A stretch of DNA of 64,000 bases from Frankiaceae bacterium (lineage in GTDB: Bacteria; Actinomycetota; Actinomycetes; JAFAQI01), in assembly GCA_025929365.1 (NCBI GenBank), contig JAICMG010000001.1, positions 1,214 through 65,213 on the forward strand. Direction: 5' to 3'. The position numbers and the translations under genes were made by a program. The notes beneath the pieces were generated by a model. The model saw only the letters and a list, made by a program, of their open reading frames with translations. It was not told the origin of the DNA and ran no database searches. Positions 10,304 to 62,395 of this stretch are shown here, in pieces (the first letter of the stretch is position 1; each line of letters opens with the position of its first letter).

Positions 10304-10394
10304 CGATTGGTCGCCGGGTCCCCGGGCGGGGTGAACCGGTACCTGTAGCTCCAGTGTGCCTGAACCAGGCAAGCGGCCGGGTTTGTTCCCGGGT

Positions 10395-23837: not shown

Positions 23838-23881
23838 TCGTCCGTCGAAGACGGCTGGCGCGCTCTCGGCTCACTTGCTTG

Positions 23882-23953
23882 TGCCCCCGGGGCGATTCGA
23901 ACGCCCGCACCCGCCTCCGGAGGGCGGTGCTCTATCCCCTGAGCTACGGGGGC
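23882..23953 (-). tRNA. tRNA-Arg (anticodon CCG)
   Basis: Reverse complement GCCCCCGTAGCTCAGGGGATAGAGCACCGCCCTCCGGAGGCGGGTGCGGGCGTTCGAATCGCCCCGGGGGCA folds into a cloverleaf. Perfect 7-bp acceptor stem, GTTCGAAT T-loop, anticodon loop CU-CCG-GA. No encoded CCA. Confidence 0.9.
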
Positions 23954-42773: not shown

Positions 42774-43806
42774 GTGCGTCCTCCCGGGCCTTGATCACCC
42801 GCCGGTAGAGCGCAAGGTGGTCCGCCACGACGCGTGCCGTCGAGAACCGCGCCGTCACGGTCGCCCGACACGCGTCCCGGTCGAGGCGGCCGACCTCGGC
42901 CAGGCGAGCCACCATGGTCGCCTCGTCGCCGCACAAGAACCCGGTGACACCATGCTCGACGATCTCCGGGGCTGCTCCCAACGGGGATGCCAGGACCGGC
43001 GTGCCGGCGGCAAGGGCCTCGACCATCACCAGGCCGAACGGCTCCGCCCACTGGATCGGGTTGAGCAGCGCCACCGCTCCTTGGACCAGCGTCAGCACGT
43101 CGGCCTGCCCCAGTTCGCCGACGTACTCGACATCGCCGACGAGCAACGGCTTGACGTTCGCCTCGAACCAGGCCTGCTCCGCCGGTTCCCGCATCTTCGC
43201 CGCGATTCGCAGCGGCAGACCCGCTGCGTGTGCCACGCGCGCCGCGGCGTCCACGCCCTTGTCCGGATGCATCCGGCCGACGAACGCGAGATATCCGCCA
43301 TCGCCGGCACCCGCCGTCACCTCGTCAGCATCGAGCCCGTGGTGGATGACGGTCGCGACCTGGATTCCCTCGTGTGCTGCCTCGACGGCCTGCGAGTGAG
43401 AGATCGCAATGATCGGGACGCGGCGAGCGAACGATCGGTAGACCTCGCTCACCTCGGGAGTGAACGGACCGTGACTGGTCGTGACCAGCGGGGGCGCACC
43501 TGGCCGCGTTCCGATGGCCGGGCCCGCCAGCGTGTGGTCGTGGACGATGTCACATCGGGCGAGACTGTCGTGCCCGCGAATCACGTGCGCGAGCTCGACG
43601 GTGGTGATCCCGATGTGCTCGGGCCGCGCGGGGAGGGTGTCGGCCACGGTCTCGACCGGACACGTGCTGTCACCCGCAGCGAAGAGCAGCACCTCGTGTC
43701 CGGCCGCCACCAGGCCGCGGGCCAAGCGATCGACGACGGCTTCGGTGCCGCCGTACAGCGGCGGCGGGACCGGAAGCCACGGCGGAGCGAGCAGACCGAC
43801 CTTCAC
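42718..43806 (-). CDS. glycosyltransferase family 4 (GT-B, group 1)
   Basis: From the GTG at 43806 the sequence reads VKVGLLAPPWLPVPPPLYGGTEAVVDRLARGLVAAGHEV, with a C-terminal E-x7-E-like region (…EPFGLVMVEALAAGTPVLAS…). The 3' end overlaps the GDE gene by 55 nt (convergent). Confidence 0.8.
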   Translation of the reverse strand: MKVGLLAPPWLPVPPPLYGGTEAVVDRLARGLVAAGHEVLLFAAGDSTCPVETVADTLPARPEHIGITTVELAHVIRGHDSLARCDIVHDHTLAGPAIGTRPGAPPLVTTSHGPFTPEVSEVYRSFARRVPIIAISHSQAVEAAHEGIQVATVIHHGLDADEVTAGAGDGGYLAFVGRMHPDKGVDAAARVAHAAGLPLRIAAKMREPAEQAWFEANVKPLLVGDVEYVGELGQADVLTLVQGAVALLNPIQWAEPFGLVMVEALAAGTPVLASPLGAAPEIVEHGVTGFLCGDEATMVARLAEVGRLDRDACRATVTARFSTARVVADHLALYRRVIKAREDAPRPWQEARPRAPRQPVRR

Positions 43807-51657: not shown

Positions 51658-54268
<2,611 letters not shown>

Positions 54269-58380: not shown

Positions 58381-59418
58381 GTGACCACTACGGCAGGCGG
58401 ACGCGCAGAAGCATGGCGACAGCGTGGCTCGTACTTCTCCTGGGCGCCCGCTGACGGGTCAGCTCCAGCGGTCGACGTCTTTCACGTCGAGGGTGGCGAC
58501 CCAGCCAACCCGACCGTGCTGCTCGTGCACGGCTTCCCGACGTGCAGTGTCGACTGGTTCGATCTCGGAATCCTGCTCAGCCAGCACTTCCATGTTTGCG
58601 CGCTGGACTTCCCGGGCTACGGGTTCTCGAGCAAGCCGGCCGGGTGGGGCTACAGCCTCGCCCGCGACGCCAGCCTGCTCGATCACTACCTCGCCGAAGT
58701 GCTGGGCAAGGAGTCGGCGATTGTCATCGCGCATGACCGCGGCACGAGTGTGTCCTTGCTTCACACCATCAACGCGGCCGCGGGCAACACGAAGGCGAAG
58801 GTCGACCACCTGGTCCTGACCAACGGCAACATCTTCCTGCCGCTGTCGAACCTCACCGACTTCCAGCGGATGGCGCTCGATCCCGCGACCTGGCCGACCG
58901 TGAAGGAGATCATGACGCCGGCGATGCTGGCCGTCGGCATGGGGATGCTCACGTTCTCGCCGCCGCGCGCAGCCGGCGATCCCGAGGTGGACGCGCTCGA
59001 CGCGACCTTTGCGCACAACGACGGCGTTCAAGTGATCAACGAGACGATCCAGTACCTCGTCGAGCGCGCAGAGCACGAGACCGACTGGCTCGAAGCCCTC
59101 GGCACGCTCGACACACCGACCTCGGTGATCTGGGGAATGAACGACCCGGTCTCTCCGCCACGGGTGGCGCTGCACGCGTGGGACGACTTCCTGATGTTCA
59201 AGCCCGGCCGCAACCGGATCTACCTCGTGCCGGACGCGAACCACTACATCCAGAACGACCGGCCGGATGCCTTGGCCGCTGCCGTCGTGCACTCCCTCGA
59301 TCCGGACAGCGGTGCTGCGCCAGGGCCGATCACGCAAGAACCCGGCGCGCCCGTGCTCGTCGACAGCTCACGGAATCGCATGCCGAAGAGCACCGAGGTT
59401 CTGGCGGGGACGCTGTAG
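58381..59418 (+). CDS. alpha/beta-fold hydrolase
   Basis: Sequence includes …VLLVHGFP…FDLGILL…, …IAHDRGTSV…, …IWGMNDPV…, …ANHYIQNDRP…. The first in-frame GTG is at 58381. Start is uncertain. Confidence 0.75.
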   Translation: MTTTAGGRAEAWRQRGSYFSWAPADGSAPAVDVFHVEGGDPANPTVLLVHGFPTCSVDWFDLGILLSQHFHVCALDFPGYGFSSKPAGWGYSLARDASLLDHYLAEVLGKESAIVIAHDRGTSVSLLHTINAAAGNTKAKVDHLVLTNGNIFLPLSNLTDFQRMALDPATWPTVKEIMTPAMLAVGMGMLTFSPPRAAGDPEVDALDATFAHNDGVQVINETIQYLVERAEHETDWLEALGTLDTPTSVIWGMNDPVSPPRVALHAWDDFLMFKPGRNRIYLVPDANHYIQNDRPDALAAAVVHSLDPDSGAAPGPITQEPGAPVLVDSSRNRMPKSTEVLAGTL

Positions 59419-59477
59419 CCAAAGTCCATCCGGCGCAAGAGCACATGAACCATGCGAGATCCGGCGCTCTCGATCGC

Positions 59478-59605
59478 ATGTGACATAGGTGTCGTGATAG
59501 GCCGCCCCTATGTCACATGCGTGTCGTGATTCACCGCCCCTATGTCACATGCGTGTCGCGATTCACGACACCGATGTCACATACGTGCCGCTACACGGCA
59601 ACGGA
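59478..59605. repeat. array of four phased 32-bp degenerate direct repeats, each beginning ATGT(C/G)ACAT
   Basis: Unit starts at 59478, 59510, 59542 and 59574, an exact 32-bp period. Units 1 and 2 are 28/32 identical (ATGTCACATGCGTGTCG(T/C)GATTCAC…). Unit 2 contains a GTGTCG-N7-CGACAC hairpin. Lies in the convergent gap between a hydrolase gene and the PQQ-propeller gene. AT content is raised. Confidence 0.8.
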
Positions 59606-59730
59606 TAGTTCCAGCTCTGAGCAGGCGAGTCGGCGCGATCGTGTGCGGTCGCCCACCTCGCCGACACCTACGGAGGTTGTCTGACTCCCGCGGCTTGTTT
59701 GGCCCCCTACGTTGGGCTCGGCGTACGAAC

Positions 59731-61458
59731 CTACTGCTGCGGGCCACCCGGCAGGCTGAACGCCCATATGCCGTTGGCCTTGGACAACGGGTTGAGGGTG
59801 GCGCTCAACGGCGTTGCCTTGCACGGCCCTTGCACCGGTGCGGGCAGGTTGTCACAGGTCTTGAACTCGACGTCGCTGTCCGACGTTCCTGCTCCGACGA
59901 CCAACGAGCCGGCCGTGATCGCTGCGCCGGAGGACACCGGGGCCGTGAGCGGAAACGCCCACAACAGCGCGCCGGTCGCGGCGTTGTACGCCCGCAGCAC
60001 GTCGTCGGTAGCGCCGCTGTAGACGACCCCGTTCGCCGCGGTCGTCGGACCGTACGTCGGCGCCTGCACCTGCGCCCAGACCCGCCGGCCCGTCGTACCG
60101 CTGAAGCCCACCATCGGTGTCGCGAGGTCGAGGACGTTCCGGGTCGGTTGAAGCTTTTCTTCTCCGGCGACCTCGTCGAAGTAGACCGGCGTGTTGATGG
60201 CCCCGCTCCCGAACACATCCGGCCGGCCCGCGACCGGCAGCACCGCAGTTGCGCCCAGCAGCCCGCCGAGCGCGAACCCGGACTGCAGGTTGCCGCTACC
60301 GGTCTCCGCCCTGTTCCACAACAGCTTGCCGGTGTGGCGATCGACCACGTAGTAGTGCCCGCTCTTGTTCGCCTCACCGACGACCTGCTCACCGGAGGGC
60401 AACGTGAACAGCTGCGCCGAAGCGCCGAAGTCGTCGTCGGAGATGTCGTTGCGCGGGAAAGGCTGGTAGCTCCAGACGGGCTTGCCGGTCACGGCGGACA
60501 TCCCGATCATCGCCTGCGACAGCCACGTCCAGCGGTTCGCGTAGTTGTAGTGACCACCGCGCGGACAGCGCAGGTCCGAGCCATCGGGCGGGCACGGTGA
60601 TCCGCTGTTGTTGGGGCAGTCCGCCGTCCCGAAGTACAGCATCGCCCGCCGCGCGGGATCGCCTGCGCTCGGATCGAGCGAGAGCGCCGGCGAGGACCAC
60701 ACGTTGCCACAACCGTAGAGAGCGTGGTGGGTGTAGGTCTCAGGGTTGAAGTGCCAGACGACCTGACCGGTGGCCGCGCGCAGCTCCCACATGCCTTCGC
60801 CGACGTAGCCGCTGTCCTGGTTCGCGTCGCTGCCGAAGATGACGACCGGCCCGCCCGGCGCGCCGGACCACACCACCGGAGAGGACTCGACCTCGCCATC
60901 GTTCGTCGGATGACGCGGATCGAGGTTGACCGACCAGATCACGCGACGCCGGTCCTGTAGGTGCCGCCGAGATCCGTCGAGCGCGTACATGCTGTCACCG
61001 GCGCCGACGAACACCATCCGATGGCCGCCGACCGTCGCCACTGCTGCCGATGAGGTGATCGTGCCGTAGGACCCTTGGTGGTGGTCGAGGTGGCCGTCGG
61101 TGCGATGGCGGCCCAGCGTGGTTTGCCAGACCACCTTGCCGGTGCGAAGGTCCAGCGCATAGAACTCGCCATCCCAGGCACCGACGTACACCGTCCCGCC
61201 GACGACTGCGGGACTGGCGGTGATGACGTCGTTGGCGTGGAAGTACCAACGCGGTAGCAACCGGGAGACGTCCGACACACTCGGGGCCAGCGGGCAAGCC
61301 GTGGAGAAGGTGCGCGCCGGGTTCTGTCCGAACATCGGCCAGTCGCACCCGGCGCTGCCAGGGGCGGCAGACCCCTTGCCGAAGCTCGGCGACGCGATCA
61401 CCCCTGCGGCCAGCACCCCCGCAAGGAGCGCGACCCGCAGCCGCCGATGCCCACCCAC
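59731..61458 (-). CDS. secreted PQQ-like beta-propeller repeat protein
   Basis: Signal peptide from the GTG at 61458 (VGGHRRLRVALLAGVLAAGVIASP). Repeated …G.VY.G…DG.LYALD..TG…W… blades. C-terminal Cys pairs. Confidence 0.75.
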   Translation of the reverse strand: MGGHRRLRVALLAGVLAAGVIASPSFGKGSAAPGSAGCDWPMFGQNPARTFSTACPLAPSVSDVSRLLPRWYFHANDVITASPAVVGGTVYVGAWDGEFYALDLRTGKVVWQTTLGRHRTDGHLDHHQGSYGTITSSAAVATVGGHRMVFVGAGDSMYALDGSRRHLQDRRRVIWSVNLDPRHPTNDGEVESSPVVWSGAPGGPVVIFGSDANQDSGYVGEGMWELRAATGQVVWHFNPETYTHHALYGCGNVWSSPALSLDPSAGDPARRAMLYFGTADCPNNSGSPCPPDGSDLRCPRGGHYNYANRWTWLSQAMIGMSAVTGKPVWSYQPFPRNDISDDDFGASAQLFTLPSGEQVVGEANKSGHYYVVDRHTGKLLWNRAETGSGNLQSGFALGGLLGATAVLPVAGRPDVFGSGAINTPVYFDEVAGEEKLQPTRNVLDLATPMVGFSGTTGRRVWAQVQAPTYGPTTAANGVVYSGATDDVLRAYNAATGALLWAFPLTAPVSSGAAITAGSLVVGAGTSDSDVEFKTCDNLPAPVQGPCKATPLSATLNPLSKANGIWAFSLPGGPQQ

Positions 61459-61483
61459 GGCCGAACTTTCGACGCGCGCGGCG

Positions 61484-62395
61484 TCATCCCTTGCTGATGA
61501 CCTCGGCGCCGTACTGCTCGAGGGCCTCGATCGCGTGGTCGACGGAGTCGCCCGGCACACCGACGCCGTTCCAGGTGACCCCGATCTCGGCGAGCTCGGC
61601 GAGGCCCTCGAGCTGAGCGCCAGGGTCGAACGACGCCGTCCCCGGCGAGCCGCCGGAGTGGGTCATGAAGGAGACGTCGATCTCGGTGCGGTCGCGGCCG
61701 GCCGACTCCACCCGCCGCCAGAGGTCGTCGAGGAGGCGCCTCAGGTCCTCGGTGGTCTCCAGGACCGTCGTCTTCGCCGTGGCCGCCAACGTCGCCGGAG
61801 CCGGGAACGGGTTCCACCCGTCACCGAAGTCGGCGACGCGCTGCCGCGCCCGCGCGCCGTTGCCGCCGACCCAGATCGGCACCTTCAGCGGCTTCGGGTT
61901 CACGGTCTGGCCCACGGCGGAGAACGTCGAGCCGTCGAACGCGAAGTTGTCGGTCGACCAGACCCCTTTGAGGACTTCGATCGCTTCGTCGAACCGGTCG
62001 TTGCGCGCGTCGAAGTCCACCCCTACCGCGCGGTACTCCGCCTTCATGTAGCCGACGGCCGCCGACAGCGTGAACCGGCCGTTCGACAACGCATCGATCG
62101 TCGCGATCGATTTCGCCACGATGAACGGGTTGCGGTAGGGCAGCACGAGGATGTTCGGGATCAGCCGGATCCGATCCGTGACCGCCGCGACGAACGACAG
62201 CGCCGCGAACGGATCCAGCGCATCGTGCCCGCCGGCGTTCAGCCACCGATCCGACGGCGCCGGATGGTCGGTGAACCCGATGCCGTCGAAGCCGGCCGCC
62301 TCCGCGGTCTGCGCAAACCGCACGATCGCATCCTTCGTCACGAAGGCCGGGTCGTACGGATGCTTGACCAGCGGGTACGTCACCCAGTGTCTCAT
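61484..62395 (-). CDS. LLM-class (luciferase-like) flavin/F420-dependent oxidoreductase
   Basis: From the internal ATG the sequence reads MRHWVTYPLVKHPYDPAFV… and includes …IGFTDHPAPSDRWL…. TIM-barrel LLM signatures. The upstream 79 aa of the ORF are junk. Confidence 0.8.
   Translation of the reverse strand: MRHWVTYPLVKHPYDPAFVTKDAIVRFAQTAEAAGFDGIGFTDHPAPSDRWLNAGGHDALDPFAALSFVAAVTDRIRLIPNILVLPYRNPFIVAKSIATIDALSNGRFTLSAAVGYMKAEYRAVGVDFDARNDRFDEAIEVLKGVWSTDNFAFDGSTFSAVGQTVNPKPLKVPIWVGGNGARARQRVADFGDGWNPFPAPATLAATAKTTVLETTEDLRRLLDDLWRRVESAGRDRTEIDVSFMTHSGGSPGTASFDPGAQLEGLAELAEIGVTWNGVGVPGDSVDHAIEALEQYGAEVISKG

Follow-up and report, generated by a model that had tools for sequence, protein, structure and literature searches.

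A dispersed, modular palindromic element, often between converging genes, in soil Actinomycetota

The locus and its element

The stretch of DNA analysed here (the window, 64,000 nucleotides of contig JAICMG010000001.1 from a Frankiaceae bacterium) contains, towards its end, an alpha/beta hydrolase gene and a pyrroloquinoline quinone (PQQ)-type beta-propeller gene that converge on a 312-bp gap (59419-59730), in which sits a repetitive, non-coding element (Table 1). This element is made of the hexamer GATCGC, four ATGTSACAT cores, 23-nt spacers and a degenerate 23-nt tail, and reads, in order, ctcGATCGC, ATGTGACAT aggtgtcgtgataggccgcccct, ATGTCACAT gcgtgtcgtgattcaccgcccct, ATGTCACAT gcgtgtcgcgattcacgacaccg, ATGTCACAT acgtgccgctacacggcaacgg. 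An original prediction, made from the letters of the window, had placed a repeat feature over 59440-59730. The array does lie within that span, but the element occupies only about 59472-59605: it begins 53 bp after the hydrolase stop codon and ends about 125 bp before the stop of the PQQ gene (142 bp when counted from the last core plus 6 nt), and nothing related to the repeat was found in the rest of the gap (59606-59730). The two genes converge as had been described, but the gap deserves the name low-GC only in part, since its GC content shows a modest dip (0.59 across 59400-59599 vs about 0.66-0.70 on either side).

The four phased 32-bp repeats with ATGT(C/G)ACAT cores are real. The core starts (Table 1) follow one another at exactly 32 bp, and Tandem Repeats Finder reports 59478-59587 with a period of 32, 3.4 copies, 84% matches and 0 indels. 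The motif ATGTSACAT occurs five times in the window vs 0.12 expected, a count of at least five being reached in none of 100 shuffles; four of the five occurrences are the cores of the array, and the fifth, a ATGTCACAT at 43547 in coding-like sequence, was rejected as a family copy since it is an isolated 9-mer with no surrounding module. When the window was scanned with R1, a covariance model built here, 59478-59518 scored 51 bits and 59542-59582 scored 60 bits, and there were no other matches. The inverted repeat that had been proposed (13 bp across 17 nt) proved slightly longer, its arms at 59475-59489 and 59507-59521 forming 15 perfect base pairs with 17 nt between them. There is one intact GTGTCG-N7-CGACAC hairpin (59553-59571), which lies in the third 32-bp unit and could be assigned to unit 2, as it had been, only by leaving the inverted unit uncounted. 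The gap yielded neither a tRNA nor a member of an Rfam family, and it has no sigma-70-like promoter and no terminator with a U-tract; Rfam searches at gathering and permissive thresholds returned only spurious miRNA-hairpin matches, far under the cut-off.

Table 1. Coordinates of the element, its parts and the two flanking genes in the window.
Feature	Coordinates	Strand	Remarks
alpha/beta hydrolase gene	58399..59418	+	homologues carry PF00561/PF12697
whole element	59472..59605		hexamer, four cores, three 23-nt spacers, degenerate terminal module; same architecture in 18 other copies
left terminal hexamer GATCGC	59472..59477		family consensus GWTCGY; compared with the flanks of all copies
core 1, ATGTGACAT, G form	59478..59486		with its flanks, exact reverse complement of core 2 and flanks (15 bp, 100%)
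spacer 1, aggtgtcgtgataggccgcccct	59487..59509		5' arm GTGTCG kept, 3' arm decayed; module fold -19.6 kcal/mol, mainly via cores
core 2, ATGTCACAT	59510..59518		from the motif count
spacer 2, gcgtgtcgtgattcaccgcccct	59519..59541		3' arm decayed; module fold -7.3 kcal/mol
core 3, ATGTCACAT	59542..59550		from the motif count
spacer 3	59551..59573		GTGTCG 59553-59558, loop cgattca, CGACAC 59566-59571; agrees with family consensus GCGTGTCGTGAnTCACGACACCT
core 4, ATGTCACAT	59574..59582		from the motif count
degenerate terminal stretch acgtgccgctacacggcaacgga	59583..59605		small hairpin in predicted fold; tentatively a decayed module (see text)
PQQ-type beta-propeller gene	59731..61560	-	converging neighbour

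A dispersed family of modular palindromes

The element is not confined to the window. A 17-mer pattern (ATGTCACATNCGTGYCG, 15 specified bases) was used to scan one genome per species (596 Gb), which produced mostly single chance matches, as expected, plus repeated matches on separate contigs in metagenome-assembled genomes (MAGs) of soil Mycobacteriales. The tally is 18 further copies in 16 loci, or, with the window, 19 copies in 17 loci from at least eight MAGs. Among the matches listed, the carriers are the Mycobacteriales bacteria SMAG_U6130 (loci L006, L018, L055 and L066), SMAG_U6196 (L061, L069, L071 and L073), SMAG_U5953 (L065, L090 and L095) and SMAG_U6222 (L109), and other matches fall on contigs of MAGs that bear the labels Mycobacterium sp. 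(L029), Frankiaceae (L101), Actinomycetota (L022) and Humibacter (L068, only 1.7 kb long and possibly mis-binned). Assemblies with the family include GCA_035547035.1, GCA_035545175.1, GCA_964510285.1 and the DASZXY and DASZOU MAGs. There are two copies each in L022 and L029, about 1.1-1.3 kb apart. The window belongs to this carrier clade, because the nearest named relatives of its proteins come from the carrier Mycobacteriales MAGs (the nearest of all being metagenomic proteins, with up to 91% identity) and contigs of SMAG_U6130, of SMAG_U6222 and of the Frankiaceae MAG share about 80-82% identity with its flanking DNA.

All copies follow one plan, that is, GWTCGY, three to five cores with 23-nt palindromic spacers between them, and RCGAWC, the full form measuring 85-150 bp and most copies having the terminal inverted repeats GWTCGY-ATGTSACAT ... 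ATGTSACAT-RCGAWC. The cores are phased at 32 bp in every copy except in L022 (31 bp). The consensus drawn from 44 core-spacer-core modules is ATGTGACAT GCGTGTCGTGAnTCACGACACCT ATGTGACAT, in which T2, G3, T4, A6, C7 and A8 are identical in both cores of 44 of the 44 modules (TGTnACA in 88 of 88 cores), while the spacer columns vary. The spacers are palindromic in consensus and a centre of two-fold symmetry recurs every 16 bp of DNA; the hairpin feet are RGGTGTCG/CGACACCY, flanked by ATGTSACAT. The element is also polar: what we call an A module, TTGTGTCACC (spacer …GGTGTTGTGTCACC…), is confined to one end, and between one and three modules of the GTGTCG-loop-CGACAC type come after it, an arrangement established by eye. 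The core with its three flanking bases (CCT-ATGTCACAT-GCG), which is asymmetric, occurs in either orientation at any position across the family. This explains the inverted first unit of the window copy, which is real, as had been noticed (its core matches the 15-mer exactly in reverse orientation), but not special to that copy.

Set against this plan, the window copy looks like an ageing, decaying one. It keeps its four cores, but the 3' hairpin arm has been lost in two of the three spacers (only one of the three spacer hairpins being intact), there is no clear A module, and RCGAWC, the mirror-image hexamer that closes most other copies, is missing. By-eye comparison with L029, L055, L095 and L109 tentatively suggests that the terminal stretch (59583-59605) could be a decayed inverted A module without its closing core and RCGAWC.

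As for abundance, the 64-kb window holds a single array and each of three MAGs has at least 3-4 exact 17-mer matches, from which a rough inference would put the copy number at tens per genome rather than hundreds. In a blastn search the 117-nt family consensus matched none of 72,556 plasmids and none of 50,697 phage genomes. The literature on repetitive extragenic palindromes (REPs), REP-associated tyrosine transposases (RAYTs) or MITEs (miniature inverted-repeat transposable elements) in actinobacteria or Frankia yielded no description of the element, and a search with the 9-mer returned noise only; the family is previously undescribed, or at least unmatched. One contig (L029) opens inside a copy (positions 1-46), in a manner that resembles an assembly break caused by a repeat, which suggests that repeats of this family fragment short-read MAG assemblies.

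Looser patterns mostly recovered other things. A metagenome scan with a three-core pattern gave 120 loci, nearly all of them unrelated low-GC TGTSACA satellites with 16-, 22- or 32-bp periods, and was set aside; these long satellites (L123, L195, L228 and many more), which have a GC content of 0.35-0.5 and TGTSACA inside, were found in metagenomes from Antarctic lakes, termite guts and the sea; they have nothing to do with the element, and their origin is probably eukaryotic or other. The same pattern in viral sequences found two tandem repeats, both unrelated to the family, one being an iteron-like set of 3-4 exact 32-bp direct repeats of GTGTGACACgtttcgcaagaggtgtcttgcgt in an IMG/VR viral contig with a GC content of 0.62 (L116, 9427-9530; 14 bits with R1). 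Two soil metagenome loci with a GC content of 0.67 (L147, 1590-1720, and L172, 51-180) carry exact 32-bp tandem repeats that start with ATGTGACAT and continue ...ccacatccttccaaacgcggtcg and ...cgcttcccttcggatggcgctcg, respectively; core and period are those of the element, but the spacers are unrelated and non-palindromic, and R1 gives only 25-26 bits.

Genomic context of the copies

Open reading frames (ORFs) were called from the GC content at third codon positions (GC3), and the 16 copies with both neighbours known were compared with a baseline made up of every gene junction in those loci. In 10-11 of these 16 cases the copy lies between converging genes, vs 22% of junctions (binomial p of about 8e-5 to 5e-4, a conservative value, since the ascertained junctions are themselves part of the baseline). 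A further 4-5 have co-directional neighbours, and are then always past the end of the upstream gene, and at most one sits between diverging genes. All copies are outside long ORFs except for a few terminal codons, and the gap to the facing stop codon is typically 2-50 bp (median of about 15 bp), the window copy being farther from both of its neighbours. In L065, L068 and L095 the stop codon is inside the element itself, twice as a TGA within ATGTGACAT and once as a TAG across its 3' edge. The element is therefore tolerated or targeted just after stop codons, chiefly between converging genes, and the recurrence at many unlinked loci of related genomes and the clustering in convergent gaps that would be expected of a REP-like repeat were both found.

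Pfam searches on ten genes flanking other copies found ordinary or unknown proteins, with no transposase or recombinase among the ten. In L022 (4062-5620), the first copy begins 7 nt past the CCA end of a tRNA-Ser gene, and two copies in the same orientation, 1.3 kb apart, bracket one gene (for a 415-aa protein with no Pfam match); similarly, the two copies in L029 bracket one 313-aa gene.

Gain, loss and persistence

The junction at which the window copy sits is hypervariable, a hotspot for gene insertion among relatives, and the element is absent from the orthologous hydrolase 3' junction in ten relatives' loci. The ancestral arrangement is the hydrolase gene converging on a gene for a luciferase-like monooxygenase. 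This arrangement persists with nothing inserted and no element, across a 22-62 bp gap or a slight overlap, in L113/L114, L115, L239-L242 and L244/L245. Elsewhere different genes have been inserted, namely aquaporin and MarR genes (L243) or an unrelated gene of at least 383 aa (L238, the closest relative), the element being absent from both; an amidohydrolase gene (a JGI contig); a ParE/PhdYeFM toxin-antitoxin pair (L112), with a possible degenerate remnant of the element; and, in the window (59419-61560), the PQQ gene together with the element. The PQQ gene is missing at the hydrolase junction in all relatives examined, and its orthologues in relatives are located elsewhere with no element downstream. 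Being absent beside the orthologues of both the hydrolase and the PQQ gene, the element travels with neither, and the window copy is thus a lineage-specific arrival at a hypervariable junction. The element is hence absent from this site in relatives, one of two things that had been named as speaking against a family of repeats, yet the other does not hold, as the repeat is not unique to the window.

In SMAG_U6130 (L112, 11060-11140), the possible remnant at this hydrolase 3' junction is found beside the ParE/Phd insertion and reads ATGTGAC...cacgacaccg...ATGTCACAT. It may, tentatively, be a decayed copy of the element, the alignment of the window gap to the L112 gap being unconvincing. Persistence is seen in L069 and L109, which are orthologous loci of two species with flanks that are 78% and 88% identical and the element in both. 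The first module is near-identical in the two, the second has diverged, and L109 has an extra inverted A module, which makes three modules vs two. A copy can therefore outlast a speciation event, and the number of its modules can change. Taken with the hydrolase junctions that lack the element, this means that the element is gained or lost at single loci, and that module number changes between orthologous copies.

What the element might be

The repeats of the window are very probably one copy of a dispersed, non-coding, modular palindromic element, similar in kind to REPs and bacterial interspersed mosaic elements (BIMEs) or to BOX elements, which a clade of soil Actinomycetota carries. Its many unlinked copies share a conserved, polar architecture. 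Repeats of this dispersed palindromic sort have been studied well in Proteobacteria and Firmicutes, but to our knowledge there is hardly a description of them from high-GC Actinomycetota, and TRIT (Tuberculosis Rho-independent terminator) in Mycobacterium, for which we know of no established function, is the one widely cited actinobacterial case.

REP/BIME sequences of Enterobacteria and Pseudomonas are likewise short imperfect palindromes that are extragenic, dispersed and enriched past gene ends and between converging genes; they are also found singly or in regularly spaced arrays, with units in either orientation and in variable number, and a stem-loop effect is expected of both at the 3' end of mRNA. 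However, the element described here comes from another phylum, is unrelated in sequence and has no GTAG/GTGG-type tetranucleotide at the 5' foot of the hairpin in the module consensus; no RAYT was found in the fetched loci, and its copy number is apparently tens per genome vs hundreds for REPs. Its best-conserved part is, moreover, the 9-bp linker between hairpins rather than the hairpin, and it has defined ends and a fixed module order. It also recalls the BOX elements of Streptococcus pneumoniae (boxA, n repeats of boxB, boxC), which are likewise composite, polar and non-coding, with a middle module repeated variably, dispersed in intergenic DNA and endowed with strong predicted secondary structure, but which differ in sequence and host, the modules of the present element sharing one invariant core in a strict 32-bp phase over 85-150 bp. 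The behaviour of the element matches that of REP/BIME and BOX elements, and we make no claim that it belongs to the REPs of RAYT type.

The nearest actinobacterial analogue is TRIT, which was reported to be restricted to Mycobacterium and mostly bidirectional; M. tuberculosis has 147 copies of this palindrome, and they centre close to position -8 as counted from the stop codon (Gardner et al., 2011; PMC3152330). Both are actinobacterial, palindromic, conserved in sequence, present in multiple copies and tightly associated with stop codons. What sets them apart by description is that TRIT is a single hairpin and the present element a phased array; in addition, only one of about 18 family matches, among those listed, bears a Mycobacterium label, and the blastn search of the plasmid collection was null. 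The labels of the matches tentatively suggest that the two families are distinct. The function of TRIT as a terminator has itself been questioned; mycobacterial RNA polymerase requires a U-tract in vitro (PMC3993855) and each class of predicted terminator in M. tuberculosis, TRITs included, overlaps only 2-4% of mapped 3' ends (bioRxiv 10.1101/2022.06.01.494293).

How might such an element spread and act? The phased cores, which at 32 bp (three helical turns) fall on one face of the helix, are plausible, if tentative, candidates for the recognition sites of a trans-acting protein that would copy or insert the element. Once in place, transcripts arriving from either of the converging genes could quite conceivably, judging from predicted folds, form two to four successive strong stem-loops, which by analogy with REP elements would impede 3'-to-5' exonucleases and read-through. 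As a whole, a dispersed modular palindrome that spreads and acts in this manner is the explanation that we consider probable. Its layout keeps apart the cores, as the part that might be read by a protein, and the spacers, as the part that might fold in RNA or single-stranded DNA.

Several observations weigh against it. None of the 19 copies is flanked by a direct target-site duplication, and in the fetched loci neither a transposase or RAYT nor a parent element sharing its ends lies near any copy. The comparisons gave no clean filled/empty pair that differs by the element alone, the window junction also differing by whole genes. R1 finds no array in about 120 kb of relatives' DNA that had been fetched for other reasons and only one in the window; copy density looks low, far below that of classical REPs. 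No U-tract is found at the window copy, which is therefore not a canonical intrinsic terminator. Lastly, predicted folds are stable (-59.8 kcal/mol, z -3.3, for the + strand of the window copy; -67.6 kcal/mol, z -4.3, for its - strand; -7 to -31 kcal/mol for single modules), but in the alignment of 44 modules 81.4% of cells pair vs 82.9% in column shuffles, double changes are fewer than in shuffles, and adjacent cores are complementary at their centre in 19 of the 44 modules, which is about the chance rate. Because pairing is no better than in shuffled columns, selection for RNA or single-stranded DNA structure in individual copies is undemonstrated. Palindromy is a property of the family consensus that is not kept up copy by copy via compensatory change, a pattern compatible either with copies that decay neutrally from a palindromic master or with duplex DNA being recognised for its symmetry. 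The lack of compensatory change argues against a classical structured RNA, and the small structured RNA that had been envisaged also finds no Rfam match.

The same pattern speaks for a phased binding array in double-stranded DNA, whose TGTnACA cores would each help to load multiple dimers of a DNA-binding protein (a nucleoid-associated protein, for instance, or a topoisomerase, as gyrase on BIME-2, or a site-specific recombinase), with a role in domain organisation or as a hotspot for recombination or insertion. Invariant cores and variable spacers of fixed length are the conservation pattern of protein-binding arrays, the window copy and the possible L112 remnant sit at a junction where inserted genes differ between genomes, and in L022 and L029 a single gene is bracketed by two copies. 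We nonetheless find a purely DNA-level role somewhat unlikely, as there is no candidate protein, the L112 remnant is weak, a pure spacing role would not need spacers that are palindromic in consensus, and the way in which copies hug stop codons and converging ends fits a transcript-level or insertion-tolerance explanation equally well. The iteron-like array of the original prediction survives in this form, as a live rival, but iterons of the plasmid type are unlikely, and those of a replicon origin are rejected, as copies are dispersed beside unrelated chromosomal genes and have no plasmid match. A bolder version, in which the arrays are cis sites of an undescribed DNA-binding or recombination system that marks or creates points of single-gene exchange (comparable to attC or pdif, though dispersed), would find hints in the different gene present at the window junction in almost every relative, the possible L112 remnant, the bracketed genes of L022 and L029, and inverted hexamer ends that come with no target duplication; we hold it to be very unlikely.

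The dispersed modular palindrome that we favour must also be set against three better-known kinds of element. A classical MITE would be a deletion derivative of an insertion sequence (IS), with several transposase-binding repeats at its ends, mobilised in trans by its parent. The terminal inverted repeats, the size (about 100-150 bp for MITEs such as the Correia elements of Neisseria), the proximity to genes (to which MITEs also sometimes supply stop codons), the presence or absence between relatives and the contig that breaks inside a copy would all fit. Membership fails, however, on the missing target duplication, and internal tandem 32-bp modules are a further difference. No longer element with the same ends, nor any identified parent IS, occurs in the fetched loci, the plasmid and phage searches were null, and orthologous retention between species suggests low mobility, all of which makes a MITE unlikely. 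A similar degree of doubt attaches to a family of factor-assisted or 'I-shaped' bidirectional terminators, a counterpart of TRIT kept by selection at converging ends with no mobility. The placement at gene ends, sometimes over stop codons, and a palindromic and hence bidirectional build speak for it, and TRITs have been described in like terms (PMC3152330). The U-tract that mycobacterial RNA polymerase needs in vitro is absent (PMC3993855), few mapped 3' ends in M. tuberculosis overlap predicted terminators, TRITs included (bioRxiv 10.1101/2022.06.01.494293), the modules show no compensatory changes, and the element is absent from the junction of the same gene pair in most relatives and is thus not required there. 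A locus-specific minisatellite born of replication slippage would account for the tandem 32-bp structure and for the absence from the same site in relatives, but it deserves almost no credence and is refuted by the 18 more copies that at least eight MAGs carry at unrelated loci, with cores, spacer types and ends all alike. The repeats of ToxI-type antitoxins are similar in size to the 32-nt tandem repeats. Yet a repeat-array RNA gene (a type III antitoxin or a small RNA) is just as improbable, there being no toxin-sized ORF after the array in the window or at other copies (the next gene converges, as it does for most copies), no promoter-like site and no Rfam match, and the neighbours being unrelated housekeeping or unknown genes. 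The same holds for a degenerate CRISPR array, which the original prediction had rightly set aside, as none of the spacers is unique (those of 23 nt all vary on a single palindrome that the loci share) and a 32-bp period is too short.

A dispersed modular palindrome of this kind overturns no current view. The family is nevertheless a compact example with well-marked limits and a convenient system in which to ask what moves or binds such elements in actinobacteria, it may account for contig breaks in soil MAGs and it offers a marker for an uncultured clade.

Other features of the window

The hydrolase ORF is listed from 58279, and its homologues measure 342 aa, which places the true start near 58390. 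Further upstream (51658-54268) is a pair of furA-katG type, in which a 142-aa ORF directly precedes a 729-aa catalase-peroxidase gene and overlaps its start; the FUR (PF01475) and peroxidase genes of L112 are syntenic with this pair. The window also contains, on the - strand, an L31-Actinobacteria ribosomal-protein leader (10309-10345), which at 45 bits exceeds the gathering score, and a gene for tRNA-Arg(CCG) (23881-23953).

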